From: Candidatus Sungiibacteriota bacterium
GTDB lineage: Bacteria; Patescibacteriota; Minisyncoccia; Sungbacterales; SURF-37
DNA length: 64,000 nucleotides
Direction: 5' to 3'
NCBI GenBank assembly: GCA_016186145.1
Contig: JACPMF010000006.1
Location: 1,906 to 65,905 of the forward strand
Shown here: positions 3,449 to 20,965 of the stretch, piece after piece
Layout: each line of letters opens with the position of its first letter
Position numbering within the stretch: position 1 is the first letter of the stretch
Notes under the pieces: model-generated
Told to the model about the DNA's origin: nothing
The model's database searches: none
Seen by the model: the letters and a program-made list of their open reading frames with translations, nothing else
Translations under genes and position numbers: made by a program

Positions 3449-3588
3449 AAGCTCACGCGGACATATTCCAAAGACTCCGTCGCGGGCTTTTAACCAGAAA
3501 TACCGGTATTACGATGTGCGAGTTTGAAGACGGCCAATGGCGCATTCATACATGGAATGACCACGCGCATCTCGGATAAATCGATAAT

Positions 3589-3659
3589 TGGGGGATCGTC
3601 TAATGGTAGGACACTGCCCTTTGAAGGCAGGTATCGGGGTTCGAGTCCCTGTCCCCCAG
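3589..3659 (+). tRNA. tRNA-Gln (anticodon UUG)
   Basis: Full cloverleaf drawn by hand. Acceptor TGGGGGA/TCCCCCA, anticodon loop CTTTGAA, T-loop TTCGAGT. CCA is not encoded. Confidence 0.8.
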
Positions 3660-3730
3660 GATTAGAGGGAAGTATCGAGTGACCAGGACGGGTCGTAAAA
3701 GACCCCCCCTATGGCTGATGCTTTCCTTAG

Positions 3731-3803
3731 CTCGTCACCATCACGTCATACCGGCTGAGTGCCGTATCCAAAACGAAAGATCGCCTCCCAAGGCGGTTTT
3801 TCG
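3731..3803 (+). repeat. R1 repeat copy A (ctcgtcacca..gtcataccggctgagtgccgtat.caaaacgaaa plus terminator hairpin)
   Basis: Near-identical to 14911-14987. The hairpin CGCCT-CCCA-AGGCG is followed by a T-run. Confidence 0.8.
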
Positions 3804-3871
3804 TTAGAAATACCTTTAGTATACATATGTATACTTGACTTTTCTATTATAATAGATTATACTGCTTATAT

Positions 3872-6367
3872 ATGGCAATCAATAAAGCAGAATTTATTAC
3901 TGTGGCTGAAATGGCCAAAATGCTTGGGGTTACCCGAGCGGCAATAAACAAGCAAATTTCAGAGAAAAAGATCCCTGCTGAGAAGGTCGGGCGTAATTAC
4001 CTAATCCCCAAAACGGCCCTTCCGGCTGGGCTTGAGGAGCGTATTCGGACTGAGCAAAAGAAAGCCACCGATACGGTTATCAAGAAAAGCCATCATCACG
4101 ATCTCGATTTTGAGAAAGAACTGTGGGCGGCGGCAGACAAGCTTCGCGGCAATATTGATGTCTCCGAATACAAAAACATAGTCCTCGGACTCCTCTTCTT
4201 AAAATATATCTCTGACGCTTTTTACAAACGACGTGAAGAACTCGCGGGTTTTACTCGTGATTCGAAGAATGAGGATTTTTATGTGAAAGACGATAAGGCT
4301 CGCGCCCAAGTTCTTGAGACCAAAGATTTCTATAAGAGTGTTGGTGTGTTCTATGTACCAGAGAAATCTCGCTGGGAATATTTGCAGACAAAGACGATGC
4401 AGTCCGATATCGGGCAAGCGCTCGATAAGGCAATGGATCTTATCGAAGAGGACAACCGCGCCGAGCTTGAGGGGGTTCTCCCTAAAATTTATACTCGCAC
4501 AACCTTGGATCATGCTGTAATTGGCGAACTCGTAAATATATTTTCTCGCATTTCATTCAATCACGACTTTGACAGGGAGAAAGACATACTCGGCCGCATT
4601 TACGAATATTTCCTTGGTCAATTTGCTTCTTCTGAAGGCAAGCGTGGTGGTGAATTTTTTACTGCACGATCGATTGTTAATTTACTGGTAGAGATTCTTG
4701 AGCCATATGAAAATGCGCGGGTTCTTGATCCGGCCTGCGGAAGCGGCGGCATGTTTGTTTCTATGGGTGAATATCTGCGAAAACACGGGCAAGATCCATC
4801 GAAGCTTGCTGTCAATGGCCAAGAGAGTAACCAAACAACACTTCGTCTTGCAAAAATGAATCTCGCGATCCGTGGACTCTCTGGGAAAATTGAGCTTGGG
4901 AATAGTTATTACCAAGACAAGTTTCCCCACCTGCAAGCCGACTTCGTAATCGCCAATCCTCCGTTTAATGCAGAATGGGAACCGTCAAAACTTGCCGACA
5001 ACGATCCTCGCATGACACTAGGAGCCCCCCCAGGCAGTAACGCCAACTTTATGTGGATTCAACACTTCGCGCACCATTTAGCGCCAAATGGTCAGGCTGG
5101 GTTCGTTATGCCAAATGGAGCACTGGCAGTTTCTGGTAGAGAGGGTGATCTTCGTCAGAAATTGATCGAAGCGGATCTTGTCGACGCAATAATCACCTGC
5201 CCTTCAAAGCTTTTCTATAACGTCACTCTTCCAGTATCTCTCTGGTTCCTTTCGAAAAATAAATCCGGAGACCGTTTCCGTAGTCGCTCTGGCGAGATCC
5301 TATTTGTGGACGCTAGGGATACATTCGAGCAAATTTCTCGTAAGCAAGTTGTTTTCAACCCTACGCAAATCCAGAAAATTGCAAACACTGTTCGAGCATG
5401 GCGCGGAGAAAAGAGGTATGGCGAATACAAGGATGTCCCGGGTTTTTGTAAATCTGTTGATGTTAATAGAGTAAAAAAGAATCACTATATCTTGAGTCCA
5501 GAAAAATATGTTGATTCCGTTGTGATCCAGGGAGATGGGATATCATTCAAAAATGATCTTGAAAATACATCCAAGTTTTTAAAACAGCAGACAATAAAAT
5601 ATAAAGAGTTCGATCATAAAATATCCACCAGTCTAAATGAATTTTACCCGAGCTCTGATTGGAATAATATAAACTATTCATCGACAAGTGTTTTAGAAAG
5701 CCTAGCTTCTAAAATATTTGACGAGTGGTTTAATCGTTACCATATTCCTGGACGTAAAAAACTGAAGTTGGTTGAGCAGGATGATAAATTAATTCCGGAA
5801 GAATGGGGCGTAAAAAAGTTGGACGAAGTGGTGGATATTTCTATTGGACGAACTCCACCGAGGGAGCAGTATGAGTGGTTTTCTAGAAATGCAGAGGATA
5901 TAAAATGGATCTCCATAAAAGATCTCGGCACCAGTGGTGCATTTATACTTGACACCGAAGAGCGTCTAACAAGAGCAGCGGTTCAAAAATTTAATATTTC
6001 AATTATTCCAAAAAATACCGTTATCGTTAGTTTTAAACTCACGGTGGGACGTGTTGCGATTACGACGGAGAACATGTTGTCGAATGAGGCTATAGCGCAC
6101 CTGAAAACAAAAAAACAGCCACACATTCCATTCCAGTACCTCTATTTACTCATGAAAAAATATAATTATGCCTCTCTCGCTAGTACTTCTTCCATTGCAA
6201 ACGCCGTAAACTCAAAGACTATAAAAAATATTGAGATCGCAATTCCTGACCCTCAAACCCTGAGTCTTTTCGAGAAGATCATGACGCCTATCTTTGAAAA
6301 GATTTACGCGCTGCAGACAGAAGAAAGGGAGTTAAAAAAACTGAGGAATCAGCTATCGGTCAACTAA
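3872..6367 (+). CDS. hsdM: type I RM methyltransferase fused to a single-TRD specificity subunit, with an N-terminal HTH
   Basis: Excisionase-like HTH (AEMAKMLGVTRAAINKQI). HsdM N-domain, motif I LDPACGSGGMF and motif IV NPPFN. The C-terminal ~230 aa is an HsdS target-recognition domain. Confidence 0.85.
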   Translation: MAINKAEFITVAEMAKMLGVTRAAINKQISEKKIPAEKVGRNYLIPKTALPAGLEERIRTEQKKATDTVIKKSHHHDLDFEKELWAAADKLRGNIDVSEYKNIVLGLLFLKYISDAFYKRREELAGFTRDSKNEDFYVKDDKARAQVLETKDFYKSVGVFYVPEKSRWEYLQTKTMQSDIGQALDKAMDLIEEDNRAELEGVLPKIYTRTTLDHAVIGELVNIFSRISFNHDFDREKDILGRIYEYFLGQFASSEGKRGGEFFTARSIVNLLVEILEPYENARVLDPACGSGGMFVSMGEYLRKHGQDPSKLAVNGQESNQTTLRLAKMNLAIRGLSGKIELGNSYYQDKFPHLQADFVIANPPFNAEWEPSKLADNDPRMTLGAPPGSNANFMWIQHFAHHLAPNGQAGFVMPNGALAVSGREGDLRQKLIEADLVDAIITCPSKLFYNVTLPVSLWFLSKNKSGDRFRSRSGEILFVDARDTFEQISRKQVVFNPTQIQKIANTVRAWRGEKRYGEYKDVPGFCKSVDVNRVKKNHYILSPEKYVDSVVIQGDGISFKNDLENTSKFLKQQTIKYKEFDHKISTSLNEFYPSSDWNNINYSSTSVLESLASKIFDEWFNRYHIPGRKKLKLVEQDDKLIPEEWGVKKLDEVVDISIGRTPPREQYEWFSRNAEDIKWISIKDLGTSGAFILDTEERLTRAAVQKFNISIIPKNTVIVSFKLTVGRVAITTENMLSNEAIAHLKTKKQPHIPFQYLYLLMKKYNYASLASTSSIANAVNSKTIKNIEIAIPDPQTLSLFEKIMTPIFEKIYALQTEERELKKLRNQLSVN

Positions 6368-6371
6368 AATC

Positions 6372-9300
6372 ATGAACCCACTCAACGAAAATAATCTAAC
6401 AGAGCAATCACTCATTGAATGGCTTCAAGCTCAGGGTTATGAGTATGTTTATGGTCCAGCAATTGCTCCGGGACAACCTAGCGCAGAGCGTGAGGATTTT
6501 CGTGGTGTTGTACTTAAAAATCGTTTGCTTTCTGGTGTCCGTCGTTTCAATCCCCAGCTTCCAGCTGAACAAGCAGAACAAGTCGTGGATGATATCGCCG
6601 GATATCATAATGCTGACCTCGTTCTTGGCAACAAAGAAATGTTCACCCTCCTTACCGAGGGGGCGAAGAAGACGTGGCGAGAAAAGGGTGAGGAAAAGAC
6701 CGAAGTCGTGAAGTTGATTGACTTCACAAATGTGGACGCGAACGAATTCTTGATCGTCAACCAGTTTACAATCCAGGGTATCGAGAACGTTTGCCGCCTC
6801 GATGGCGTTGTTTTTGTAAACGGTCTTCCTCTTGGAGTCCTTGAACTCAAGAGTCCCGTACGTGAGGAAGCGACGATCGGTCAGGCGTACCGCGACATAG
6901 AATATTACAAAAGGGAAATACCGAGAATCTTCTTCTATAACCAAGTCCTTTGCTTATCTGACCTTACAGAAGCACGTCATGGAACGATATCTTCATCATG
7001 GGAGCGATATAGCGCGTGGAAAGGAATTGAATCAGAAACGGATGCACCTAAAGGAGCGGCGGAGCTTGAGGTTCTTGCTAGGGGTCTTTTTAACAAGGCG
7101 CGGCTTCTCGATGTAATTCAGAACTTTACGGTTTTTGAGGCCGACGGAGATGGTGACGCGGTGACGTACACAAAAAAATCTGCTTTGTACCATCAGTACT
7201 ACGGCGTAAATAAGACGATTCAAAGCACTGTGCATTCAGTGCTTGGAGAGCGGGAAAGAAAAATTGGTGTTTTCTGGCACACGCAGGGTTCGGGTAAGTC
7301 ACTCTCAATGGTTTTCTATGTGAATAAAACAAAGAGCATATCAGAGCTTAAAAGTCCCGCTTATGTATTTCTTAATGACCGCGAGGATCTCGACGACGCG
7401 CTATTTAAAACATTTAGTCGTACTGGGTATGGCACGCTCGCAAAACGCGCTTCGAGCATAAAAGATTTGAAAGATCGACTTTCCCACTTGGGAAGTGAAC
7501 TGATATTTACAACCATTCAGAAATTCCAAGAAGATCCTGACGCGAACGCCGTTCTCTCGGAAAGAGAAAATATTATTGTGCTTACTGATGAAGCACACCG
7601 CACGCAATACAGCATGCTTGCGGGTAATGTGCGACAGGCATTACCAAACGCGAGCTTTTTGGGCGTGACCGGAACTCCAATTTCACGGCATAATCGCAAC
7701 ACCATGCGTGTTTTTGGTGATGTAATAAGCGCATATAAGATTGGCCAGGCAGTAAAAGATAAAGCAACCGTCCCTATTTACTACGAGGGCCGTCTTGTTC
7801 CTCTCCATCTGGCTGATCAATTTGTTGATAGCAAACTCGACGAAATTCTTGGAGAAATTATCGTCGATGAAAAAGCAAAAGCCCGTAAAGAATGGGCCGT
7901 CCTTGAGGAGGTTGTAGGCGCGCCAAGCCGTATTGATCAAATATCAAAAGATATCGTTACTCATTTCAATAACCGTCCCATCGAGGGCAAAGCAATGGTA
8001 GTTACAATGAGTCGTCCTATCGCCGTCGCTATGTATCAAGCAATCAAAAAGATTTCCGGTACTCCAGAGTGCGCAGTGGTAATTTCCAAAATGGAGGACT
8101 TCCCGGGACAAATTCAAACTGAGCACGATGTGAAAAAACTCGAGAAGCGGTTTAAAAAGACGAATGACCCACTTCGTTTGGTTGTCGTCTGCGATATGTG
8201 GCTTACCGGATTTGATGTGCCGAGCATGCACACAATGTATCTCGATAAACCCCTTAAGAACCATGGGCTCATGCAAGCCATTGCTCGCGTGAACCGCGTC
8301 TACAAAGATAAGCCGGGTGGTTTAATTGTGGACTATATCGGTATTGCCGAACACTTAAAGAAAGCCTTGGCTATTTATGACTCTGATGTCCAAAAGGAAG
8401 CAATGATTCCTCTCGATGAAGTAATTAGTGAGATGAGAAAATTGCACGGAGAAATTTCTCGCTACTTTACGAATATCGACTTTTCTGGTTGGAGACAAAA
8501 GAAAGGCGTTGAACTGGTCAATCTCTTCCAGTCGGCAATGAATGAAGTTATCTCAGAGAATGGCCGGCTTTCTGATGATCGAAAAATGGCTTATATGGGT
8601 GGAGTTTCCAAACTTTCCCAGCTCCATGCCCTCGTCATGCCCGCAGAGGCGGCGATGAAGATTATAACCGATGTTCAATTCTTCCAGTCAATCCGCGAAG
8701 CAATCAACAAACAGACAGTGGTGCCGCATATTATCTTTCCCGAAGCAAAAGAGAGTGCCATCCGCAGCCTTATACAAGACGCGGTGCAAGCAGAAGGCGT
8801 AATTGACCTATTTACCAAAGAAGGCGAAGAGAAAAAAAGCATCTCCATCTTTGATAGTCGATTCGCAGAAGAAATAAAGAAGGTTAAATACCAAAATCTT
8901 GCCATTGATACGGTTCGCAAAATGCTTGATCAAGAAATAAAGGTACGCTCTCGTACAAACAAGGCGCGCTATGAAACGATGCTTACGCTTTTAACCGAAC
9001 TAATTGAGAAATACGAGAATAATGTTATTAGTTCGGCAGAGATCATTAAGCATCTACTCGAGATTGCCGACGAGATAAAGAAACTGGACGAAGAGAGCGA
9101 GGAACTCGGACTTTCCGAAGAGGAGATCGTCTTTTATGACACTCTTGCAGCCGATCCAGATCTCAAAGAAGCAGGGATTGATATCAAAGAATTCGTAAAG
9201 GAACTTACAAAACGTATTCGGCGCGACTTGGCTATTGATTGGACCAATAACGAAACTATCAAAGCGCGCATTCGCCAAAATGTTCGGTTGCTTTTGCTCC

Positions 9301-9401
9301 AGAAGGGCTTCGTCGAGCAGATGCAAACAGAACGACTAATAGAGTCGATATATCAGGAGACGGTGAGGGTGTACCGGGAATACTTACCAGTACCAGCGTA
9401 A
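6372..9401 (+). CDS. hsdR: type I restriction enzyme R subunit
   Basis: Walker A TQGSGKS and DEAH box LTDEAH. Length 1009 aa. Starts 5 nt after hsdM-S. Confidence 0.9.
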   Translation: MNPLNENNLTEQSLIEWLQAQGYEYVYGPAIAPGQPSAEREDFRGVVLKNRLLSGVRRFNPQLPAEQAEQVVDDIAGYHNADLVLGNKEMFTLLTEGAKKTWREKGEEKTEVVKLIDFTNVDANEFLIVNQFTIQGIENVCRLDGVVFVNGLPLGVLELKSPVREEATIGQAYRDIEYYKREIPRIFFYNQVLCLSDLTEARHGTISSSWERYSAWKGIESETDAPKGAAELEVLARGLFNKARLLDVIQNFTVFEADGDGDAVTYTKKSALYHQYYGVNKTIQSTVHSVLGERERKIGVFWHTQGSGKSLSMVFYVNKTKSISELKSPAYVFLNDREDLDDALFKTFSRTGYGTLAKRASSIKDLKDRLSHLGSELIFTTIQKFQEDPDANAVLSERENIIVLTDEAHRTQYSMLAGNVRQALPNASFLGVTGTPISRHNRNTMRVFGDVISAYKIGQAVKDKATVPIYYEGRLVPLHLADQFVDSKLDEILGEIIVDEKAKARKEWAVLEEVVGAPSRIDQISKDIVTHFNNRPIEGKAMVVTMSRPIAVAMYQAIKKISGTPECAVVISKMEDFPGQIQTEHDVKKLEKRFKKTNDPLRLVVVCDMWLTGFDVPSMHTMYLDKPLKNHGLMQAIARVNRVYKDKPGGLIVDYIGIAEHLKKALAIYDSDVQKEAMIPLDEVISEMRKLHGEISRYFTNIDFSGWRQKKGVELVNLFQSAMNEVISENGRLSDDRKMAYMGGVSKLSQLHALVMPAEAAMKIITDVQFFQSIREAINKQTVVPHIIFPEAKESAIRSLIQDAVQAEGVIDLFTKEGEEKKSISIFDSRFAEEIKKVKYQNLAIDTVRKMLDQEIKVRSRTNKARYETMLTLLTELIEKYENNVISSAEIIKHLLEIADEIKKLDEESEELGLSEEEIVFYDTLAADPDLKEAGIDIKEFVKELTKRIRRDLAIDWTNNETIKARIRQNVRLLLLQKGFVEQMQTERLIESIYQETVRVYREYLPVPA

Positions 9402-9405
9402 TTTT

Positions 9406-11961
9406 ATGGACAGTCGTATACCATTTGTAAAAGAAGTCGCCAAGGTCATCATTGAACGCCATGAAAAAGAGGGCGGCTCCTTTATTTTTGGTATATCCGG
9501 CAAGTGGGGTGAGGGTAAAACAACTTTTCTGGACGAATTGAAAAAAGTATTGGAAAAAGATAATTCATCATTCAAAGTTGTGGATATAAATCCATGGAAA
9601 TTTTCCGTCGACAGAATTTCTTTTTTGAGAAACTTCCTGCGAACTTTGCACGGAAAATGTGATTTGGGGGGTGACGATGATTTAAAACAGTTAGATGTTG
9701 ATACGTCAAAAAATGCAATCGATTGGGGACGATTTTTAAAATTTGTCGTATTGTTTGGAGTCATTTGTTGGGCTTTTACTTATGCCCCTCTTTTTAATTT
9801 TATAATTGGCCTTCCTGCGCAATGGCAATTTTTTCTAACCGTTTTGTTGCTCCCAATTGTCTTAGCAGCCGTTCAAGGCGTAGTAACTGTCCAAAAGACA
9901 GATCACGCTATAGTTACTTTAGACAAATTTGATGATCTACTTAAAAAAATATTAAAGAATTTTGAGATGGCGGGAAAGAAGATCATTGTTTTTGTCGATG
10001 ATTTGGACCGTGTAACTCCCGAAATGGCGAGAGATGTTCTCGATAATCTGCGGACGTTCTTTGATAAAAAAGAAATGACCTTCGTCGTAACAGGAGACCA
10101 TACAGTACTCGAAGGACATCTCGGGAGAAGTCTTCTTCCCGACGAAGAATCTTCTGCTGCTCAGCTAGAAGAAGGACGTAGATTTATGAAGAAAATCTTT
10201 AATGTTTATTGGCGACTTCCACTCCCAATCAAAAAGGGGATCCAAGACTTTATTGGAGGTGAGTTCAAAAAGAGGGACTCAGGGTTGAAAGAAGTGTTCT
10301 CTGAAGAGAGCCAGAAAATTACCTTCGCTACATATCTGGAGAAATATTTTGAAAGTAATTTCAGGCAAATAATCAGATTTTTAGACACTGTTCTTTTTAA
10401 TTTTCAAATCATAAAACAAAAAGCTGAAGGCGAAGACACACAAGCTCCTTACTTCAAGGATATGCTGACCAATCCGCTGCTTGTGATACGTATTCTTATA
10501 ATCCAAGAGTTGTGCGCCCCTCTTTTCGACAAAATGGTTAGAGATGTTTCCATTTTGCAGGGGCTTGAATACGCAGTCGAGAAAAAGGATTCTTCTAAAA
10601 CAACTGAGATCCTAGGACAAGGCAAGGATACGCTTTCTCCTAGTCAACGAGCTTTTATAGAAAAGTTTATTTATGAGGAACCACGTTTTTACAAAGGATC
10701 TCGCCTACAGGTCTTAAACCTTCAGCCCTATCTATCGTTAGCTGCTGACGTAAGCTTCGGCGATCAGCGTGGTCCGTCCAGCGAAGACTTTATTACGGCA
10801 CTTAACGGAGGAGATCCCAAGGGAGTAAAAAATGATCTCCTTTCAATGGGAGATGCAAAAGCAGAGGAGGGCGCAACTGCTTTGGTAACCCAGCTACCCC
10901 CCATGATTGATGTTACTCAAAAATTGGGCGCAATAAAAACACTTCTTGTCGCCTTGTCTGATTCACCCACCGAATTAACCATACATAAAATATTTGCTGA
11001 TCAATTAAGCAAGCTTGATTACCATTTTGTAAATAATGCTGCGTCTAATCTAAAAATGGAAGTTTTAAACCTTCTCTTTGGTTGGCTCGACCTGATTTCA
11101 GACCCCACTGTGATAAGTGCGTTTGAAAGTAAATTTACTCTGAAGGATATTACTGAATTTAATGCTGTAAATATTGAAGGAGCAGGTTCTTTCAAAAGTT
11201 TGGTTTTGGCGAAATGGATTAAGGAGTATTACTCTAAGCAAAAACCCGATGCCATAAACGCTATGGTTGCACACTTTCCAAAACTAAAAATTGAGAAAGT
11301 GAGGGAGCAAATGGATACTATTGATAAAATCTTGGTTACTGACCTTATTGGAGACTCCAACGCACTGTTAAGGGAGAACCGCTTTGCTTTGTTGAGAAAC
11401 TATACAACTAAAGGGGCTGAGATGCTCAAAGAAAATGTTCTGAACCAAGTTTCTGGTTTTGATCAAGGAATTACTGCGTGGGCTATCGCAAAAGCAAATG
11501 AGGAAAAAGCTCTGTGGACGATAGGTGAGCTTGAGACAAAAATCCTAGAAAAAATTGAGATTTCGGCGGACTTCAATGCCCTTAATCAGGGATTAAGGTT
11601 TGCTTTAACCAATAAAGTTGGATCCCCAGAGATGATTTGGCCCAAGCTTCTTCCTAAACACCAGAAAAGTATTCTTGAAAATTTACCAGCAATTATTGAT
11701 GACGCTTCACTTCAACCGATTTCACCACCACAAGCTTATGCAAATCAACTTATGGATGCAGTAGTAGCAAAAATTAAGACCATTCCGGAGGCTGACCAAG
11801 CCCGCTGGCTTAGTTATATAGTTAAAGGTAAATGGCCTTGGATTAATCTGGCTAAATACCCTATTACCAGTAAGTTTAGAAATATGAAGAAGTCTAAAAA
11901 CGAAGATCTTAAGAAGAATTTTGCAATTACTGAAGAAAGCTGGGTAGAGAAAAATGATTGA
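9406..11961 (+). CDS. KAP-family P-loop NTPase
   Basis: Walker A GKWGEGKTT and Walker B IIVFVDDLDR. Two TM helices inserted between them are the KAP hallmark. Starts 4 nt after hsdR. Confidence 0.8.
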   Translation: MDSRIPFVKEVAKVIIERHEKEGGSFIFGISGKWGEGKTTFLDELKKVLEKDNSSFKVVDINPWKFSVDRISFLRNFLRTLHGKCDLGGDDDLKQLDVDTSKNAIDWGRFLKFVVLFGVICWAFTYAPLFNFIIGLPAQWQFFLTVLLLPIVLAAVQGVVTVQKTDHAIVTLDKFDDLLKKILKNFEMAGKKIIVFVDDLDRVTPEMARDVLDNLRTFFDKKEMTFVVTGDHTVLEGHLGRSLLPDEESSAAQLEEGRRFMKKIFNVYWRLPLPIKKGIQDFIGGEFKKRDSGLKEVFSEESQKITFATYLEKYFESNFRQIIRFLDTVLFNFQIIKQKAEGEDTQAPYFKDMLTNPLLVIRILIIQELCAPLFDKMVRDVSILQGLEYAVEKKDSSKTTEILGQGKDTLSPSQRAFIEKFIYEEPRFYKGSRLQVLNLQPYLSLAADVSFGDQRGPSSEDFITALNGGDPKGVKNDLLSMGDAKAEEGATALVTQLPPMIDVTQKLGAIKTLLVALSDSPTELTIHKIFADQLSKLDYHFVNNAASNLKMEVLNLLFGWLDLISDPTVISAFESKFTLKDITEFNAVNIEGAGSFKSLVLAKWIKEYYSKQKPDAINAMVAHFPKLKIEKVREQMDTIDKILVTDLIGDSNALLRENRFALLRNYTTKGAEMLKENVLNQVSGFDQGITAWAIAKANEEKALWTIGELETKILEKIEISADFNALNQGLRFALTNKVGSPEMIWPKLLPKHQKSILENLPAIIDDASLQPISPPQAYANQLMDAVVAKIKTIPEADQARWLSYIVKGKWPWINLAKYPITSKFRNMKKSKNEDLKKNFAITEESWVEKND

Positions 11962-12084
11962 GTGGTCTATATCATAGCTGGAGGTTAATGAGCGATGGGG
12001 TAAGCTATCGACTAGGCATATTAAGCGGCCGGTTCCATGGTTCGTTACGAAAGAGAAGAGGATTTAATTAAACTGGTTACGTAG

Positions 12085-13488: not shown

Positions 13489-13581
13489 TCCCTGCTCGCG
13501 GCGAACGCTGGTCCTATTCAGAATCAGAGGATTCGACAGCCGGCTGGCGTAGAGCATTGAACTGTAATTGAATAAAATCAT

Positions 13582-14235
13582 ATGCTAGACGCTGAAACAT
13601 TCAAAAAGTTTACAAGGCAAGCCAACCTTTCTCATCAGCAGTTTTGTGTTTGGTTCGCATTTAACAATGAGTATGCCAAACACCAGGATCGTTGGAACAA
13701 ATTTTATCCCGAAAGTTACTTTGCACCGGAAGATTTTGATAAGACGAAAGGATGTAAGTATAAAAACTTCTGGGGTGTAACTTTGGCCTCAACGCAGCAC
13801 GGCTGGATTCTGGGAATAGCAAGACTCTTTGATCCCGCATTTCATCCTTTTGATAAAAAACAGGAAAAACCTCGAATCTCTTTCGACTATATTCTTAGAA
13901 GACTTAATGATCAAAACTTGTCAGATAAACTGAGGCAAGAGTTAGATTGGCACAAAAATGTAATTGAATCTGTAAGAAAACATAGGGATAATGTTCTTGC
14001 GCATAACGATGCGAGCTTTGATTATAAAAAAATTGGGCCAGGAATTGAAAATCTTTTTGAATGGTTAGAAGATGTTATTTCAAGAATAAAAAAAACAGAG
14101 CCACACCTTAGTAGTTGTGGTGTAGTGAACGTTAAGTATCACGAGAAATTATCCCAATGTGGCGTAGATGAGGTTTTTGAAACTTTACTGCTTGGGGAAA
14201 AGCATGAGGTAGATGAGTCGAGGAGAACCTCATAA
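13582..14235 (+). CDS. hypothetical HEPN-like (Abi-type) protein
   Basis: 217 aa. RKHRDNVLAH fits the Rx4-6H HEPN motif (AbiD/F-like R..RN..AH). Confidence 0.4.
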   Translation: MLDAETFKKFTRQANLSHQQFCVWFAFNNEYAKHQDRWNKFYPESYFAPEDFDKTKGCKYKNFWGVTLASTQHGWILGIARLFDPAFHPFDKKQEKPRISFDYILRRLNDQNLSDKLRQELDWHKNVIESVRKHRDNVLAHNDASFDYKKIGPGIENLFEWLEDVISRIKKTEPHLSSCGVVNVKYHEKLSQCGVDEVFETLLLGEKHEVDESRRTS

Positions 14236-14250
14236 AAGCGATGATCATAT

Positions 14251-14655
14251 ATGTTTCCACTGGAAACTAAATCTTACGAAGCAAAATCGCTAGCCGACTC
14301 TTTGCTTGGCAATCCGTATCTCCAAGTTGAGTCCGCAGAACTCCCCGAGAGCGGAGGAGTTTATTTGTTCAGAAATGATGCAAATGAAATAGTATATATA
14401 GGCAAGGCGCGAAATCTAAAGAGAAGAATCCGCATTGACCACTTAAGCCAGGAACTGGGCGATACTATGAGTGCTTTTAGAAGAAGCATTAATAAGGTGC
14501 TTGGAATTCCTTTCGGCCATGAGATGAAAAGCTGGATATGCAGCAATTGCAAAATTTCTTTCATCCAGATAGATGATCCAGATATGCGCAGTTTGGTGGA
14601 GGCGCTTTTAATCGCTGCCGTCAGATCGAAGTCATTGCTCAATCATGATAGTTAG
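14251..14655 (+). CDS. GIY-YIG nuclease domain protein
   Basis: GVYLFRNDANEIVYIGKARNLKRRI. Lies 16 nt downstream of the HEPN-like gene. Confidence 0.7.
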   Translation: MFPLETKSYEAKSLADSLLGNPYLQVESAELPESGGVYLFRNDANEIVYIGKARNLKRRIRIDHLSQELGDTMSAFRRSINKVLGIPFGHEMKSWICSNCKISFIQIDDPDMRSLVEALLIAAVRSKSLLNHDS

Positions 14656-14674
14656 TGTTCACGGCATATGAAAT

Positions 14675-14709
14675 GAGACACACATAGTAGTGTCTCATTT
14701 GTCTCATTT
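14675..14709 (+). terminator. rho-independent terminator
   Basis: Hairpin GAGACAC-8 nt-GTGTCTC followed by ATTTGTCTCATTT. Confidence 0.6.
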
Positions 14710-14910
14710 AGGTTAAAATGACCTAGACCGAGACCCTTCACTATAGAGAAGGGAAGGATCTCCAAAGAAGCTCTAAGGTATCCCACTCGGGTTGGTTCTA
14801 GACTGGAGTGGCCAGCCACCTTGCGACCCCTACCGGGACGCCTGCCTGCCGGCAGGCAGGGGTCAGGCGTCGTAACGCTTGACTCGTCAATGTACGAAAT
14901 TTGGTCGCAA

Positions 14911-14987
14911 GACTCGTCACCATTTATGGCATACCGGCTGAGTGCCGTATTCAAGAACGAAAAACCACCAATGTCGGTGGTTTTTCG
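14911..14987 (+). repeat. R1 repeat copy B with terminator hairpin
   Basis: gactcgtcaccat..ggcataccggctgagtgccgtattcaagaacgaaa, then CCACC-AATGTC-GGTGG and a T-run. Confidence 0.8.
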
Positions 14988-15056
14988 TTTTGTACAAAAT
15001 AAACATGTTTTGATTCCGATATTTATTTTTCTGAGCTTATAAATTAGATTTAGTCT

Positions 15057-15953
15057 TTATTGGATTCCCATGGGGTTGCCAAATACCGGTACAAAGTTGG
15101 TTGGTTCTACTATGTTTCCTGTTTCCATTCCAATCGCTCGCATATCCGAAGAGTTCTCGATGCCGATGGCTATTCCATTCTCAGTACTATATGTATTGGC
15201 ATTTGGGTCTATATCAGCCTTAATCATCAATGTCTTGCTTAATCTCTCCGGTGTAACGAGCAGGAAATCCAAGCTAATCACGGCTTTGCCGTCTAAGAAA
15301 CTGCTCGCTGTTCCGATTCGGGTGCTGCCGTCAAAAATCTGAATGTTGAGAAGGTCGGCATCTGTCCCGCCGTTTCTTGTCAGCGTCAGTTGCTGGATTC
15401 CTACATTTTCGTTTCCAGCAGTAAAAGTAATCGCGCTAAAGTTATTCCATGCACTCCCGCGCTCATAGTAGGCAGACGGAGGTGTATTTGGAGAAAGCGC
15501 GACCGTAAGCGGTGCGGGAGTTTTTGGTTGAAGCGTTCCATGTACTTCCGTGTAGGCGATAACCATGCCGTTAGAATTTTTTGCCTCAACGCGAACCGTG
15601 AGCGGCACTTCGGTTTTGCTCCTCAAAACATTGGCGTCAAGAACGATGCCGAACCCGTATTTGCCCGCAGGGCGCAAGGACGGAAAAACTTGTTCCACAC
15701 CCTGCGATATTTGTTTGCTGTCAGTTGATGCGGAGACGATAAGTTGGCCGCCCAGTTTCAGGATGGGGCCGTCCCAAAACCCTTTAGCAATAGTGCCGCC
15801 GATAGGAAGCGTGTCTTGCTCTCCGGTAATTACGAATCCTTCAGAAAGCGAGGAAATCATTATTGGCCCGCCTGCCGCGCCCGTAAAAAGAGGTAGTAGC
15901 GAGATACCAATGATTATTGCGAATGATGTTTTCATATAAGTATATTGTAGCAT
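15057..15953 (-). CDS. secreted hypothetical protein
   Basis: 298 aa with an N-terminal signal peptide (SFAIIIGISLLPLFTGAAGG). Confidence 0.6.
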   Translation of the reverse strand: MLQYTYMKTSFAIIIGISLLPLFTGAAGGPIMISSLSEGFVITGEQDTLPIGGTIAKGFWDGPILKLGGQLIVSASTDSKQISQGVEQVFPSLRPAGKYGFGIVLDANVLRSKTEVPLTVRVEAKNSNGMVIAYTEVHGTLQPKTPAPLTVALSPNTPPSAYYERGSAWNNFSAITFTAGNENVGIQQLTLTRNGGTDADLLNIQIFDGSTRIGTASSFLDGKAVISLDFLLVTPERLSKTLMIKADIDPNANTYSTENGIAIGIENSSDMRAIGMETGNIVEPTNFVPVFGNPMGIQ

Positions 15954-15964
15954 ATTGAAAGGTT

Positions 15965-18061
15965 TTACTCTATTGTCAGCGGAACGGTTATTTGTCTCCC
16001 GTCTCTTAAGAGCAGACCAATAAAATATTCTCCGGAGGATATACTTTCTGGTATGAAAACGCCATTTATATGTGGTTCACAACTTGTTTTAAAAAAATAA
16101 TTAAGATTGTTTAAAGAAATTGTCATATTTAACACTATATCATCGAATCCCAAGGTGTTATCTCGAGAAAGTATTAATGCGGCGACTTCATCCTGTTGGA
16201 ACCCCGCGCTTGCACTTTGAAACCTTAAAAACCCTCCTTTTGCAACACTGTTGACACACAGTTTAAATTCCTTTACGACCACATTAGAAGGTTGATGCGC
16301 AGGCTGAAAAAGTATTTCCACCGCATCCGCTCGTGTTTTGAACTTTTTAATTTTTTTTAATAAATCATTTTTAGGTATGATTACAGGATCGTCATCGAGA
16401 TTGATCCATTGGTTGGATAATAACCTTGCGAGGGTTTCGATAGTAATATTTTCGTCTGATATTTCTGTGTGCGAAAATTTTGTCATGCCGCGGTCGTCTC
16501 TTTTTTCATGATTGACCACTTCGCTACGCCTCTCATTTTCTTCTTTAGTTAAACAAATAACTCCGAAAAGATAATGATTTGGAATTTGCTCATCGTGAAT
16601 TAAGTTGAAACTCGTATGATTACCTCTCACGCTAGAAAAACTCGGCTCGGGTAAATAGTCAAAAGTACTCCCATAGCTATTTATGTTGAAGTGAGAACAA
16701 AAATTGCTAACGTATAGCGCGTTATCTATGTCCCATTTTATTTCAGTAGTCGACGGGAAAGAAGATACCATGATGGGGCCATCGTTTCCGTTAGCCTTGA
16801 CCCCAACATAAGGATTGATAGGAGCACAAACATCCTGTGGTACGGCCACCTTCACGCCATCAGAAACTATTGTATGACTAGAAAAATCTCGCGCGTTATA
16901 ATGCTCTACCTTTAGAACGTATTCGTATGTTTTCCCAGTAACAATTGTTCCATCGCCGTATTCGGTTCCGTTCATTGAAGACAGACTGTGTATTTCTTTG
17001 CCATCTCGATATATAGTCTGGGACGCAATCAAATCGCCAGCCGGAATTGAGTCCAAATTCCACTCTAAGATAACAGTGGGAACAGCTCCTGTATTATCAG
17101 CTCCACGGTCACAATATGTTTTATAACGAAGATTTACCGTCTTTCCTTGCACCGCAATTGAAGATAGCTGTTGAGTTGCGGGTGGTTGTTGGTTTTTTTG
17201 CGGTTGTTCGTCTTCTTTTTGTTTTGTTTCTGTAGCTGGCCTTGTTACAATTTGAGTACTTTCCTTAGCAATTTCATGATGTTCCAACTCATTTGCTATA
17301 AGTTTTGCAATCTCCTCCGGAGCGGAGACACCAGTTTTTACTAATTTGTTCAACTCAACAAGACCAAACGCAAGTTTTGTTGCGGAAACTTTAAGGCCGA
17401 CTTCTTCGGAAATGGCTTCGGCAACTTTGCTGACAATCACATCTTTTGCCGCGTTTCTATCTGCGGTGGAAACGCTTTTGAATTGCGAGTCAAGCCAGTA
17501 ATTTAAGAGCATACTTTCAGCCCCCATCAAGGTGCTACCGAACTTTCCTCCAGCGGCCTTTCCCGCAAGCCCCGGAATACTTGCAGACAATTTTCCGATT
17601 TCATGCTCAATCTCTTGAGCTTTCTCTATGTTTCGGCTCCATACCTCCAACGCCGCGGAATCATAGAGATGCCAAAGGCGCTGGTAGGAAGTACTTCGTT
17701 CAATGTGCTCGTTGGCTATATCGGTATTACCGCTTATAAGAAACTTTTCGGCAATGCCGAGTTCCTGCAAAGCGTAATTTTTATAAGCGTGCGCGGAAAG
17801 ATAAAGTTCATTGTATTCGTCTAAGTGCGGCTGGCGTATTCCGAGAACAAACCATTTGCGCACGTTATTTAAAAACCCATCTGCTGGTTCAATGATTAAA
17901 TTAGGCGAGTCCGGCGTCTCAAGAATTATTTTTCTTGATTGCGAGATAACATTTTTGAGGTCCGGCATCTCGATGGCATTCGCTTGAGAAAAACTAAAGA
18001 TGAACCAGCCAGATATGACCAGCATTGTTGAAATTACAAATATGATTGGGTGTCTTTCCAT
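15965..18061 (-). CDS. large secreted or membrane-anchored hypothetical protein
   Basis: 698 aa. N-terminal TM/signal segment and a Q/P-rich linker. The segment around TVNLRYKTYCDRG..TYEYVLKVEHYN is a beta-sandwich, possibly fibronectin type III-like. Confidence 0.6.
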   Translation of the reverse strand: MERHPIIFVISTMLVISGWFIFSFSQANAIEMPDLKNVISQSRKIILETPDSPNLIIEPADGFLNNVRKWFVLGIRQPHLDEYNELYLSAHAYKNYALQELGIAEKFLISGNTDIANEHIERSTSYQRLWHLYDSAALEVWSRNIEKAQEIEHEIGKLSASIPGLAGKAAGGKFGSTLMGAESMLLNYWLDSQFKSVSTADRNAAKDVIVSKVAEAISEEVGLKVSATKLAFGLVELNKLVKTGVSAPEEIAKLIANELEHHEIAKESTQIVTRPATETKQKEDEQPQKNQQPPATQQLSSIAVQGKTVNLRYKTYCDRGADNTGAVPTVILEWNLDSIPAGDLIASQTIYRDGKEIHSLSSMNGTEYGDGTIVTGKTYEYVLKVEHYNARDFSSHTIVSDGVKVAVPQDVCAPINPYVGVKANGNDGPIMVSSFPSTTEIKWDIDNALYVSNFCSHFNINSYGSTFDYLPEPSFSSVRGNHTSFNLIHDEQIPNHYLFGVICLTKEENERRSEVVNHEKRDDRGMTKFSHTEISDENITIETLARLLSNQWINLDDDPVIIPKNDLLKKIKKFKTRADAVEILFQPAHQPSNVVVKEFKLCVNSVAKGGFLRFQSASAGFQQDEVAALILSRDNTLGFDDIVLNMTISLNNLNYFFKTSCEPHINGVFIPESISSGEYFIGLLLRDGRQITVPLTIE

Positions 18062-18314
18062 CGAAGTTAAAATAACATGATTTTGTGTTTAAGGTAAGTG
18101 CTTTCGCCTAACCAGCTATTTTCAACAGTTCTTGGTCCAACTCTTTTCCTAGTAGACGCGGCGGGACGCCTTTCGGTAAATGTGACACTACCAAGAACCT
18201 CTCCCGTGTCATGTTTGTAACATTTGCATGGGGCTACGGTTCGAATCCAAGAACCCCCCGTTTTTCGGATTCACACCACTAAGGTCTAAAACAAAGGGCC
18301 ACGCATGAACAAGA

Positions 18315-18342
18315 TAGACATCAAACAGCCTCTTTTTATAGT
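18315..18342. repeat. 28-bp direct repeat, copy 1 (tagacatcaaacagcctctttttatagt)
   Basis: Identical to 20477-20504. Confidence 0.9.
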
Positions 18343-18459
18343 ATGACTCGGACCCCCCATATTTAGACACAAAGGCCGGAAAGTATTCAGGGCGGAAAGC
18401 TGTTAACCTGTTCTGCTGCCCTTTTGTTTGCTTGTCTATTTTGATATAATTAGAGGAAT

Positions 18460-18699
18460 ATGGAAAACAAGTCCAAAACGATCATTATCGCGACAGTCGT
18501 GGTTCTTGTAGTAGCGGGGGCCGGCTTTTGGTATTGGTCAAAGAGCAAGCAGGCCCCGTCTTCAAAAGAAGCTTCTTCGTTAGGGGGCGAGATCTTTGAT
18601 AAAACGCAAAATCAACTTCAGGGCCAGGTTCCGGATACTAATCCCTTCAAAGACCAGAGGAATCCTTTAGATTTAATTTATCAAAACCCTTTTGAGTAA
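18460..18699 (+). CDS. small membrane protein
   Basis: 79 aa with one TM helix. Confidence 0.4.
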   Translation: MENKSKTIIIATVVVLVVAGAGFWYWSKSKQAPSSKEASSLGGEIFDKTQNQLQGQVPDTNPFKDQRNPLDLIYQNPFE

Positions 18700-18705
18700 T
18701 TAAAA

Positions 18706-20382
18706 ATGAAATTATTTTATTTCCCAAAATTCGTAATGCTCTCTTTCGCAATCATTGCGCTTTCGTTTTTTGCGGTCTTTTTCGTTACCTTTGCTCTGAA
18801 TGAAGTATCGGCACAAATTAGCAATATTACATACCCAGTAGCAGAGTTGGGGAGTTGTGTCGGCCAGCAAGAATGTGAAGCTTACTGCGGTGTGCCAAGC
18901 AATTATTCAAAATGCGCCGCATTTGCCCAAAAAAATAATTTAGCAATAGAAATACCCGACGATAAAAAAGCCGTTTTTGCGGCGATGCAAAAAGGAGAGA
19001 GTCCGGGCGGATGCAAGGATGAAGCATCTTGCCGCAATTATTGCGAAGATATTGACCACATAGAGGAATGCGTCAATTTTGTGGAAAAATTTAACTTGGC
19101 CAGTTCTGACGAGTTAAAGGAAATACGCCAGATGGCCGATGTTAAAAAAGCGGGTGTGGCGTTTCCGGGAAACTGCAAAACCAAAGAAAACTGTTTAAAG
19201 TATTGTGATAATTCCGATAACGCGGTTGTATGTATGGAATTTGCCCTGAAAGCCGGATTTATACCGAAAGCAGATACCGAGGCGGTTAGTAAAATTCTTC
19301 CTTATCTGAAGAGCGGCGGGAAATTACCCGGTGGGTGCACGACAAGGGAATCGTGCGACACATACTGTAATGACGACGCTCATGTTACTGAATGCATTAA
19401 CTTTGCCGAAAAAACCGGATTTGTATCAAAAGAGGATGCCGACATAGTGAGGAAGACCGGCGGTAAGAGTCCGGGAAATTGTAAATCGAAAGAGGCATGC
19501 GACAGTTACTGTAAGAGTGAAACGCATATTGATGAATGCGTGGACTTTGCGGTAAAAGCCGGTCTTATCTCAAAAGAAGACGCAGAAATGGCCAAAAGAT
19601 TCAAAATTACTTCCGGCCCCGGCGGATGCAAGAGCAAAGCCGATTGTGAAGCCTTCTGTGTCGTAAACCAGGATACTTGTTTCCAATTTGCCAAGGACCA
19701 TGGAATGCTTAGCGAAGAAGATCTCAAGAACATTGAGGAACAGAAAAAGTTCCTGGAATCGCTTGGTAAGGCCTCTCCGGAGTGGTTTGCCTGCATGGAG
19801 AAAGAGCTCGGTTCACCCTTTTTTGAACGATTTAAGGCTGGAAAATTAACACAAACAGAAGCCAAATCTCCAGCCCTGGAAAAAGCGCAGAGAAAATGCG
19901 GGGGCGAGATGGCCCAGGAAAAAGAGGCCGCCTGTTTGGCACTTTCCTGCTCCGAGTTTGAGTCCTGTCTAAAAGCTCTGCAGTCAAGCGGCGGAGACCA
20001 GGACGGAGAACAACAAGAAGAAGGCGCTCCGAATCCGGCAGTTAATGCGAAGGCCCAATCCTGCCAACAAGAAAAAATTAACGCGTGTTTGGCAAAATCG
20101 TGCAGTGAATTTGACGCTTGTGTAAATGCTCTTCAGCAAGGTGGTGGAAAACAGGGCGGACAACAGCAGCAGGGAGAGTCGGATCCGAAGCTAAAAGCAA
20201 AAATCCAGGCCTGTACTGATGAAAAAATTAACGCGTGTATTGCCAAACCATGCGGTGAATTTCAAGCCTGTCTTAATTCTTTAGGCGCTGGAGGTGAAGG
20301 CGGAGCACAACAGGGCGCACCGAATCCGGCTGTTCAGTCCAAGCTTATGACATGCTTTCCTCCGCCTCCTTCAGGTGAATGA
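18706..20382 (+). CDS. secreted Cys-rich tandem-repeat protein
   Basis: Signal/TM at the N-terminus. Six ~50 aa repeats of PGGCKxKExCxxYCxxxxHxxECxxFAxKxGxxSKED. Three C-terminal repeats of CxxEKINAC(L/I)AKxCxEFxACxNALQQGG. Confidence 0.7.
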   Translation: MKLFYFPKFVMLSFAIIALSFFAVFFVTFALNEVSAQISNITYPVAELGSCVGQQECEAYCGVPSNYSKCAAFAQKNNLAIEIPDDKKAVFAAMQKGESPGGCKDEASCRNYCEDIDHIEECVNFVEKFNLASSDELKEIRQMADVKKAGVAFPGNCKTKENCLKYCDNSDNAVVCMEFALKAGFIPKADTEAVSKILPYLKSGGKLPGGCTTRESCDTYCNDDAHVTECINFAEKTGFVSKEDADIVRKTGGKSPGNCKSKEACDSYCKSETHIDECVDFAVKAGLISKEDAEMAKRFKITSGPGGCKSKADCEAFCVVNQDTCFQFAKDHGMLSEEDLKNIEEQKKFLESLGKASPEWFACMEKELGSPFFERFKAGKLTQTEAKSPALEKAQRKCGGEMAQEKEAACLALSCSEFESCLKALQSSGGDQDGEQQEEGAPNPAVNAKAQSCQQEKINACLAKSCSEFDACVNALQQGGGKQGGQQQQGESDPKLKAKIQACTDEKINACIAKPCGEFQACLNSLGAGGEGGAQQGAPNPAVQSKLMTCFPPPPSGE

Positions 20383-20476
20383 GGGCCATCGAGCTCATTT
20401 ATAGGGCACTCATTTCTTACAACAATATCAAGGTTTCTTCTTAAATAACGGGGTTTTGATTTTTATAAAACGCCAG

Positions 20477-20504
20477 TAGACATCAAACAGCCTCTTTTTA
20501 TAGT
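20477..20504. repeat. 28-bp direct repeat, copy 2; here it forms part of a hairpin GTAGACA...TGTCTAC
   Basis: Identical to 18315-18342. Confidence 0.9.
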
Positions 20505-20646
20505 GTCTACTTTGTCTACTGAGGCCCCGCCTGCGCTAAAGCTACGGACGGGCAGGTCGGATTTTGTTCGGGGGGGACAGCACGCGTATGCTAAAGTCAG
20601 GTGACTGAGGTGCCCGCCCTTTGGGCGGCATCGCATACGACTCCTT

Positions 20647-20788
20647 TCCACCATGTCATACCGGCTGATGGTTCGACAAGCTCACCATAAAGCGCCGCTT
20701 GTCCTGTTTATGCCGAGCCGTGTCGAGGGAGGCGGAGTCGAAGGATATTCAAGAACGAAAAGTCCGCTGTAAAGTCAGCGACTTTTCG
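20647..20788 (+). repeat. R1 repeat copy C, split by a 77-bp insert (20669-20745) with inverted ends
   Basis: ccaccatgtcataccggctga | insert tggTTCGACaag..gaGTCGAAgga | tattcaagaacgaaaag, then hairpin CGCTG-TAAAGT-CAGCG and a T-run. Confidence 0.7.
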
Positions 20789-20965
20789 TCTGGACAGGGG
20801 AGCGCGTAAAATTTTCTCGAAGAAAATTATCAGTGCAAAAAGACTTATTTCATGATAAGCTTTTTATATTGTTTGCTTGCGATTTACCTTGTTAGAAATT
20901 TTGGATCAGCGGAATACGGTAAATAGCAGTGTTGAATTATATTATAGATGAACTTCTAGCGGAAT

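Follow-up and report, generated by a model that had tools for sequence, protein, structure and literature searches.

R1, a repeat downstream of tRNA-Gln in a Sungbacteria genome: a probable recombination site of large serine recombinases, bounding two islands without a recombinase gene

Results

Layout of the locus and its three R1 copies

We analyzed a stretch of 64,000 nucleotides from a Candidatus Sungiibacteriota bacterium (contig JACPMF010000006.1 of assembly GCA_016186145.1, forward-strand positions 1,906 to 65,905; this whole stretch is hereafter the window), focusing on a short repeat that is termed R1. The organism belongs to the Candidate Phyla Radiation (CPR) or Patescibacteria, a large and mostly uncultured share of bacterial diversity whose mobile elements are little known. 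In the window, dnaX and a histidine phosphatase gene lie upstream of a tRNA-Gln gene, and R1 copy A is found 86 nt past this tRNA. Two further copies, B and C, the latter split and extending over 20657-20751, follow in direct orientation. Two blocks of accessory genes, islands 1 and 2, lie between the three copies, and glycosyltransferase genes are found downstream of copy C. Together with related loci in other CPR genomes (designated here by L numbers), these features make it probable that R1 is the core of a ~35-45 bp site recombined by large serine recombinases (LSRs) in CPR and that two islands without a recombinase are arrayed in tandem in the window. Coordinates of all features are collected in Table 1.

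The conserved core that an earlier sequence-only reading had proposed for copies A and B was borne out, as the 23-mer GTCATACCGGCTGAGTGCCGTAT is found with no mismatch at 3745-3767 and with one mismatch at 14928-14950, and had no match in 100 shuffles of the window. By sequence reading and alignment of the three regions, copies A and B have the common block ..CGTCACCAT..CATACCGGCTGAGTGCCGTAT(C/T)CAA(A/G)AACGAAA. A search with an nhmmer profile of the core, of the kind that the same reading had proposed as a check, returned these three sites and no fourth one in the 64 kb. The gene content between the copies agrees with its statement that R1 stands at the borders of two accessory blocks. Copy C begins with CATACCGGCTGA and, after an insert of 77 nt, continues with TATTCAAGAACGAAA from 20746. 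This insert and its inverted ends (TTCGAC...GTCGAA) had been noticed as well, but the interruption is not the exact one described, since G(T/C)GCCG, a run of six bases in the core, has been lost or replaced.

Each of the three copies is followed on its 3' side by a G+C-containing hairpin of 15-16 bp with A-tract and U-tract flanks, as is usual for an intrinsic (rho-independent) terminator. The stem sequence is different in each, as had been read, but the description of these hairpins as covarying did not hold; they are simply different terminators. For the core itself, the fold first proposed (ATACCGG-CTGAGTG-CCGTAT) was close but not exact, the predicted one being AUAC(C)GGC-UGAGN-GCCGUAU with a bulged C. 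At the DNA level, the same positions form an imperfect dyad, with inverted half-sites ATAC(C)GGC and GCCGTAT around TGAGN and conservation from about -10 to +26, which is in line with a recombination site of ~40-50 bp.

R1 in other CPR genomes

The 21-mer core of R1 is found exactly in 15 species-level genomes, all of them CPR and from several classes, and genomes with the exact repeat include Saccharibacteria, Paceibacterota, Sungbacteria, Taylorbacteria and Staskawiczbacteria. In each of the 15 it occurs on one contig, and most contigs hold a single locus. When one position of a 20-mer was left free, more than 120 metagenome contigs were found among the matches listed. For comparison with the window we used 146 R1 copies in 137 loci, found by exact pattern search. 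Outside the searched pattern, the flanks of 109 unique copies are near-invariant, with C at position 0, C and A at +22 and +23, and A at -4.

A tRNA-Gln gene precedes 71 of the 146 copies at a distance of 52-214 nt, and 14 more have a tRNA-Gln further upstream. The tRNA-Gln itself is only 76-96% identical between the R1 loci and the window. The tRNA-adjacent units have a uniform layout: a hairpin module that varies and comes in several sequence types, a C/U-rich linker without pairing (e.g. CUCCGUCCCACCCACGU), R1, YCARA, and a terminator with a variable stem. The dnaX gene is a neighbour also in L023, L142, L171 and L174.

Recombinase linkage and junctions at R1

The commonest open reading frame (ORF) after R1 encodes a protein of 430-475 aa with Resolvase, Recombinase and Zn_ribbon_recom domains, that is, an LSR. 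These three domains are the top Pfam families among 150 distinct ORFs located up to 4 kb downstream of R1, with 17-20 members each, and the next family has 4; no Phage_integrase, the domain of tyrosine integrases, is present among the 25 Pfam families listed for these ORFs. An LSR gene is found in 47 of the 137 R1 loci. The linkage is directional: the gene is on the strand opposite to R1 in all 49 R1-LSR pairs and downstream of R1 in 44 of them. In 28 pairs, the LSR stop codon is placed 40-64 nt past the core, so that only the bidirectional-looking terminator lies between. In CPR the LSR family is very large: at E ≤ 1e-30 it numbers no fewer than 8000 protein clusters.

Comparisons between pairs of loci place R1 at the boundary of shared DNA. 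Between L087 and L120, a stretch of 4.1 kb that includes a tRNA fragment, the module, R1 and TCAAGA is 99.85% identical, but from 6 nt past the core the two loci are unrelated; similarity resumes only within a host GTPase gene, at 87.5% identity. The same island thus ends at R1 in two different genomes. In L039 and L091, R1, the terminator and the LSR gene are shared at 86% identity and the upstream DNA differs. L044, in turn, equals its relative L104 with the addition of a 1.66 kb single-gene cassette that is flanked by two units. The site therefore stands at the junction in all three pairs. Tandem arrangements are found as well: in L010, L103 and L125, a 2.2 kb toxin-antitoxin cassette is enclosed by a pair of near-identical 300-nt units, and these three loci, L044, L065, L034 and L075 carry two-copy R1 arrays. 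With the window, L107 shares the split R1 unit and one stretch of 525 nt located 4.7 kb further downstream, and the distance from first to last R1 is ~2 kb in L107 as compared with 17 kb in the window. This difference speaks for the accessory character of the DNA between the copies in the window, as does the recurrence of its restriction-modification cargo in L026.

Attachment-site model and points against it

That the R1 copies could be remnants of attachment (att) sites had been suggested from the window alone, and the suggestion is well supported by the directional LSR linkage, by near-identical islands that end at R1 and by R1-bracketed tandem cassettes elsewhere. In the model that we consider probable, the site would lie in a small RNA-like unit directly downstream of tRNA-Gln, made up of a hairpin module at the 5' end, a linker rich in C and U, the R1 hairpin and, last, a terminator. 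Mobile elements would carry their own R1, on which the LSR would act, and would integrate by R1 x R1 recombination, so that an element would be bracketed by two direct R1 copies. With the crossover within R1, the incoming DNA would supply a new right half of R1 and a new terminator beside the tRNA, and the displaced R1 copy would mark the far end of the island. Repeated integrations and later loss of the recombinase genes could then produce an array such as that of the window, in which three direct copies lie downstream of one conserved gene with two unrelated cargo blocks between them and no recombinase. As neither island holds a recombinase, the two may be fixed remnants, or cassettes that would be movable only with an LSR acting in trans.

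Several observations weigh against this model and should be considered together. No recombinase was detected in the 64 kb window, either by tblastn with 14 LSRs or with an LSR profile against all six-frame ORFs. No free or circular element with a phage-type attachment site (attP) was found; the R1 pattern scan of IMG/VR gave two hits, and these look like matches by chance, as they lie inside coding sequence and lack the flanking signature. When eight contexts were sampled through the LSR rather than through R1, R1 was present in 2, tRNA-Gln without R1 was nearby in 3, and neither was found in 3. The invariance of core positions 1-20 is in part a consequence of the loci having been found by that very pattern. 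A crossover at R1 gives no explanation for the tRNA-Gln 3' fragment, starting at the T-loop, that precedes R1 in distal units (see below). Finally, canonical serine integrases act directionally on attB and attP sites that differ from each other, leaving only a 2-bp duplication, whereas all R1 copies share at least 21 identical bases. The observed copies thus depart from the phiC31 type, and any two of them could in principle recombine; such a shared core fits promiscuous, Ccr-like enzymes or homologous recombination.

Among LSR relatives in IMG/VR, neighbours other than R1 mostly prevail, and tRNA-Gln together with R1 is seen only in L153.

Evidence for a small RNA

Integrases commonly target conserved RNA genes, and the second suggestion of the sequence-only reading was that the repeat is the 3' module of a small RNA family. 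This suggestion received partial support from a constant architecture and compensatory changes, but it is less firm than the att-site reading and has no Rfam match. The tRNA-adjacent units lie on the same strand as the tRNA, and every member is predicted to fold as hairpin, linker, hairpin and terminator, with strongly negative z-scores. In a subfamily of 17 members that includes unit A, the GGAAGUAUCGAG type, the closing stem shows compensatory changes (GGUUGG/CCAACU, GGUCGG/CCGAC and GGCGG/CCGC, with G-U pairs). A GUGA (GNRA) loop caps a stem in which AU is swapped for GC in 6 of 18 sequences, and rare R1 variants keep the pairing as G-U. In another variant, CATACCTGCTGAGAGCAGTAT, a G-C pair is replaced by U-A; it occurs in L153 and L171, both of which were found through their LSR and not through R1, and whose LSRs are not mutual closest relatives. 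We also considered that R1 variants might co-vary with the LSR clade. This was not seen, as the two variant-adjacent LSRs are only 60% identical and each is closer to LSRs linked to canonical R1.

Rfam 15 detected only the tRNA in the window (gathering score for the whole window, and E ≤ 10 for positions 3000-21500) and, in 32 related loci, only tRNA and the LOOT RNA, the latter without overlap with R1. ARAGORN found no transfer-messenger RNA (tmRNA). When the long forms and the GGAAGUAUCGAG subfamily were subjected to automatic consensus folding with RNAalifold, the R1 hairpin was the sole structure recovered, owing to poor alignments, which are shallow and mix module types.

The folding evidence would also be accommodated if the R1 units were paralogous small-RNA genes, the islands between them having arisen by homologous recombination or at a tRNA-Gln hotspot, with the LSR a mere neighbour for which R1 is not a substrate. 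The conservation of a unit with a variable 5' hairpin, a seed-like C/U-rich linker, a constant 3' hairpin and a terminator would in that case be explained by its function as RNA. The constant fold architecture and z-scores, the compensatory, GUGA-stem, G-U-keeping and U-A changes, and a promoter-like motif ~250 nt upstream in the long forms are all in its favour. We nonetheless regard this explanation as unlikely. It leaves unexplained why the LSR has the opposite orientation in 49 of 49 pairs, why only a terminator separates the two in 28, and why island identity stops 6 nt past R1. The Rfam result and the recovery of the R1 hairpin alone from long forms also count against it, and a dyad bound by a dimeric DNA-binding protein would be expected to show compensatory changes just as well.

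An RNA role of the R1 unit is plausible and is compatible with the att role. We tentatively propose, as a possibility clearly below the att-site model in confidence, that the R1-ended unit may be an undescribed CPR small RNA derived from the tRNA-Gln trailer, with a C/U-rich seed between a variable 5' hairpin and an invariant 3' hairpin and with a terminator at its end, whose gene serine-recombinase elements would target and of which they would carry promoter-driven variants. In that case, a regulatory RNA of the host would be exchanged for another version, or gain one, with every integration event. More speculatively, the RNA itself might take part in recombination or control it.

Long-form units and the tRNA-Gln fragment

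Distal R1 copies (B, C and those of other loci) belong to long-form units of ~300 nt. They open with AATGAGACA-N-TAGTGTCTCAT-TTGTCTCAT, which is followed in order by a stretch rich in A and T, a GACC..GACCGAGAC block, a 3' fragment of tRNA-Gln that begins at the T-loop, a module and R1. In unit B, the 5' part ahead of the tRNA fragment (14671..14793) may be a promoter or operator. In the long form of copy C, a variant of the motif (TAGACA/TGTCTAC) scores as a sigma-70-like promoter. The module type of unit B is found also in L009 and L094, and an intact version of unit C is present in L086 and L117 at 88-90% identity. Most distal copies elsewhere are preceded by an equivalent tRNA-Gln 3' fragment.

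These fragments raise the question of whether the islands integrate at the 3' end of tRNA-Gln, in the T-loop, with R1 and its module as passengers between the crossover and the recombinase gene and with distal copies as displaced old tRNA ends. Such a mechanism would account for distal units that start with the fragment, in the window as elsewhere, and has a precedent in Dehalococcoides, where an LSR inserts in the tmRNA T-loop (PMC3146451). In L142 (18150-18400, minus strand), moreover, the tRNA-Gln 3' end TTCGAATCCTAGCCCGGCAGCCA is exactly duplicated past an insertion of ~150 nt. As R1 is absent from L142, another kind of insertion also uses tRNA-Gln. Integration at the T-loop is, however, improbable as the general explanation, and a T-loop crossover was rejected for two events: the identity between L087 and L120 runs through tRNA fragment, module and R1 and breaks only past R1, and L039 and L091 share DNA only from R1 onward. 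The fragments in the window are degenerate, having strongly diverged from the resident tRNA-Gln. Neither these fragments, nor the L087/L120 boundary at R1, nor the neighbour families listed, with no tyrosine integrase among them, correspond to classical tRNA targeting. The weakest alternative, a generic intergenic repeat of the repetitive extragenic palindrome (REP) or terminator-cassette kind that would serve neither recombination nor any specific RNA function, is suggested by copies that are mostly hairpin plus terminator and by weak Rfam matches only to terminator-like parts of unrelated small RNAs, and it is highly improbable given only three copies in 64 kb, all in one 17 kb stretch and one orientation, one contig in each of 15 species genomes with mostly one locus per contig, and the tie of R1 to tRNA-Gln and the LSR gene.

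Three recurrent motifs of these units should be mentioned in their own right. The motif GAGACA...TGTCTCAT-TTGTCTCAT, with one inverted and two direct copies, is found in the window at 14671-14709 and 20477-20520 and in L010, L006, L078, L096, L039, L134 and L086. The set changes in concert between loci (TAGACA/TGTCTAC, GTGACA/TGTCAC, TTAGACA/GTCTAAT); it lies ~250 nt upstream of distal R1 copies and resembles a group of operators or iterons. Each long-form unit has the motif GACCGAGAC (GACCAGAGAG in L039 and L134) three times, with concerted variation inside a locus; in the window it is located at 14726-14736, 14799-14808 and 14825-14833, and L078, L039, L134 and others have it at the same three places. 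Lastly, a perfect palindrome of 21 nt, GCCTGCCT(G/A)CCGGCAGGCAGG (window 14845-14865), lengthens the apical stem in two modules independently, that of unit B and the tRNA-Gln-adjacent one of L091; the relatives L009 and L094 are without it.

Comparison with known systems

The closest parallel is offered by the ssrA islands of Dehalococcoides, where a CcrB-like LSR (DsiB) is encoded on the reverse strand beside attL, the direct repeats are 20 bp long and islands occur in tandem, some of them without an integration module and thought to be fixed or cis-mobilisable (PMC3146451). As in that system, one small-RNA gene is followed by islands in tandem, which are bounded by direct repeats of its 3' region, an LSR gene on the reverse strand stands beside the proximal repeat (for R1, in related loci), and recombinase-less islands exist. 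The targets, however, are different: in Dehalococcoides the islands target the tmRNA T-loop and the repeat has 20 bp, whereas R1 forms a hairpin within an unannotated unit that stands 50-100 nt past tRNA-Gln, and the repeated unit, with its tRNA fragment, can span 150-300 nt. The host phylum also differs. The R1-linked LSRs have ~430-475 aa, and their full elements often carry ParB-methylase and terminase genes, unlike the Dehalococcoides islands.

The SCCmec and other staphylococcal cassette chromosome (SCC) elements (CcrAB, CcrC; rlmH/orfX) are similar in that serine recombinases act on sites with a common core, cassette arrays are separated by direct repeats, pseudo-SCC cassettes lack ccr genes, and the cargo is often restriction-modification (in part after the comparison in PMC3146451). 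They differ in that SCC targets the 3' end of a protein-coding gene, commonly with two recombinase subunits; homology between the recombinases was compared by domain architecture only. With the LSRs of phages phiC31, Bxb1 and A118, the R1-linked enzymes share the Resolvase, Recombinase and Zn ribbon domains, a site of ~40 bp with an imperfect dyad and an integrase gene at the edge of the element. In these phages, attB and attP differ and a 2-bp duplication is left, in contrast to the core of at least 21 bases that the R1 sites share. As for RNAs, bacterial small RNAs with C-rich seeds that derive from a tRNA 3' trailer or end in a terminator, such as 3'ETS-leuZ and those of the RsaE/RoxS type, resemble the R1 unit in standing directly after a tRNA on the same strand, with an unpaired C/U-rich stretch between hairpins and an intrinsic terminator, but they have no sequence or Rfam relationship to it, and extra copies of the R1 unit are found inside mobile islands.

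For the window itself, the outcome is fairly ordinary: a decayed tandem island array that is probably bounded by att-site repeats. The locus nonetheless points to a phylum-wide CPR integration hotspot beside tRNA-Gln, often near dnaX, with a short conserved site and an abundant, dedicated clade of recombinases. A search of the literature on CPR serine-recombinase islands at tRNA-Gln returned no paper. In fragmentary CPR genomes, R1 could help to mark out islands and defence cargo, and R1 and the LSR are a natural candidate recombinase/site pair and a possible genetic tool for CPR. The small RNA, if real, would join the few regulatory RNAs that are known from CPR.

Island cargo, the insert in copy C and LSR elements

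Table 1 Features of the window and of related loci. Positions without a locus number refer to the window.
Feature	Position	Strand	Basis or remark
tRNA-Gln (UUG), locus anchor	3588..3660	+	ARAGORN and Rfam
Unit A variable 5' module: long hairpin of GGAAGUAUCGAG type, then C/U-rich linker	3661..3746	+	Folds as a single long hairpin; 17-member subfamily
R1 core copy A (CATACCGGCTGAGTGCCGTAT)	3747..3767	+	Pattern match, profile; conserved block ~3737-3773
Terminator A, stem CGCCT/AGGCG within A-tract/U-tract hairpin	3769..3805	+	Bidirectional in form
Island 1 cargo	3806..14670	+	Pfam, PADLOC
HTH-HsdM-HsdS fusion (type I restriction-modification)	3872-6367	+	Island 1
HsdR	6372-9401	+	Island 1
PifA-like KAP NTPase	9406-11961	+	Island 1
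467-aa protein of unknown type	12085-13488	+	Island 1
AbiU2 HEPN	13582-14235	+	Island 1
GIY-YIG	14251-14655	+	Island 1, directly upstream of unit B
Unit B 5' part: AATGAGACA-N11-TAGTGTCTCAT-TTGTCTCAT repeat motif, A/T-rich stretch, GACCTAGACCGAGACCC block	14671..14793	+	Same block order in 13 loci
Degenerate tRNA-Gln 3' fragment (GGTTCTAGACTGGAGTGGCCAGCC), starting at the T-loop	14794..14817	+	Sequence reading
Unit B module with 21-nt palindromic expansion GCCTGCCTGCCGGCAGGCAGG and linker CTCGTCACCAT	14818..14929	+	
R1 core copy B	14930..14950	+	Pattern match, profile
Terminator B, stem CCACC/GGTGG	14956..14992	+	
Island 2 cargo	14993..20476	minus: 298-aa, 698-aa ORFs; plus: 79-aa, 558-aa ORFs	
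Unit C upstream part: TAGACA-16-TATAGT / TGTCTAC-TT-TGTCTAC motif, tRNA 3' fragment (20566-20583), GCUAAGUCAGGUGACUGAG-type module	20477..20656	+	
R1 copy C left part (CATACCGGCTGA)	20657..20668	+	Sequence reading, profile
77-nt insert, inverted ends TTCGAC...GTCGAA, end motifs GGTTCGACAAGCTCACC and GAGCCGTGTCGAGG	20669..20745	+	Replaces core G(T/C)GCCG
R1 copy C right part (TATTCAAGA) and terminator C, stem CGCTG/CAGCG	20746..20791	+	97.7% identity to intact unit of L086
End-motif or small-element sites elsewhere	L070:5661-5727; L037:7604-7624; L053:2091-2109; L060:2585-2597; L034:480-492		
LOOT copies	L056:371-491(-); L001:6640-6759(+); L002:440-554; L046:4591-4711; L079:10390-10505; L067:5666-5791; L049:6150-6284; L085:270-395		Rfam-scored

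By its gene content, island 1 is a defence island, with type I restriction-modification, a PifA-like KAP NTPase, AbiU2 and GIY-YIG. Its restriction-modification genes are 75-77% identical in DNA to those of another R1 locus, L026. The type I methylase of this island is a single fusion of 831 aa, in which an excisionase-like helix-turn-helix domain (HTH_17) at the N-terminus is followed by HsdM and a single HsdS target-recognition domain. Small GIY-YIG genes recur beside tRNA-Gln or long-form units, as in the window, in L143 (8921-9178, beside a real tRNA-Gln) and in L173 (2947-3243).

The four ORFs of island 2 have no Pfam, PADLOC or PHROG matches. A promoter-like sequence of 28 nt, TAGACATCAAACAGCCTCTTTTTATAGT (TAGACA-16-TATAGT), is exactly duplicated at 18315-18342 and at 20477-20504, the start of unit C, bracketing the 79-aa and 558-aa ORFs, and a stray tRNA 3' fragment, GGTTCGAATCCAAGAACCCCCC (18238-18262), lies 55 nt ahead of the first copy with no R1 following. 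Because of this duplicate and the stray fragment, island 2 may consist of two blocks.

The insert in copy C looks like a small element of the miniature inverted-repeat transposable element (MITE) kind that disrupted the last site, and such an insertion would inactivate this R1 copy. Inverted ends are present; no target-site duplication is seen, because 6 nt were replaced. L107 is split at the same point by a 53-nt version (L107:3909-3961), and the R1 units of L086 and L117 are intact, with no insert. The end motifs occur a single time in the window. In the form GGTTCGACAAGCTCA and GAGCCGTGTCGA(A/G), they recur at unrelated places in other CPR loci, with 5 exact 13-mers in ~0.93 Mb of loci.

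Full LSR elements contain ParB-methylase, small and large terminase-like genes and SNase, and frequently carry defence or diversity cargo: CBASS (cyclic-oligonucleotide-based anti-phage signalling system), restriction enzymes, and the reverse transcriptase (RT) and Avd of diversity-generating retroelements. Examples of the latter are the RT and bAvd genes in L023 (6582-7949) and L149 (12092-13532), and a CBASS pair (SMODS and SAVED) is found in L146 (1129-3148).

The LOOT RNA (Rfam RF03000, listed there only as gene/sRNA) was likewise found inside LSR/terminase elements, in 8 Rfam-scored cases; the part of the text of Weinberg 2017 that was available contains no description of it. LOOT was considered as an att site and rejected, because its position is internal to the elements, to one side or the other of the LSR gene, and it has no overlap with R1. 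In 7 of the 8 cases it has the orientation of R1 and is located 70 nt to 3.6 kb past the LSR start. Two further copies were recognized by eye just past the LSR stop, on the LSR strand, in L142 (~11375-11495) and L149 (~11350-11480). This distribution suggests that LOOT is an RNA of CPR mobile elements.

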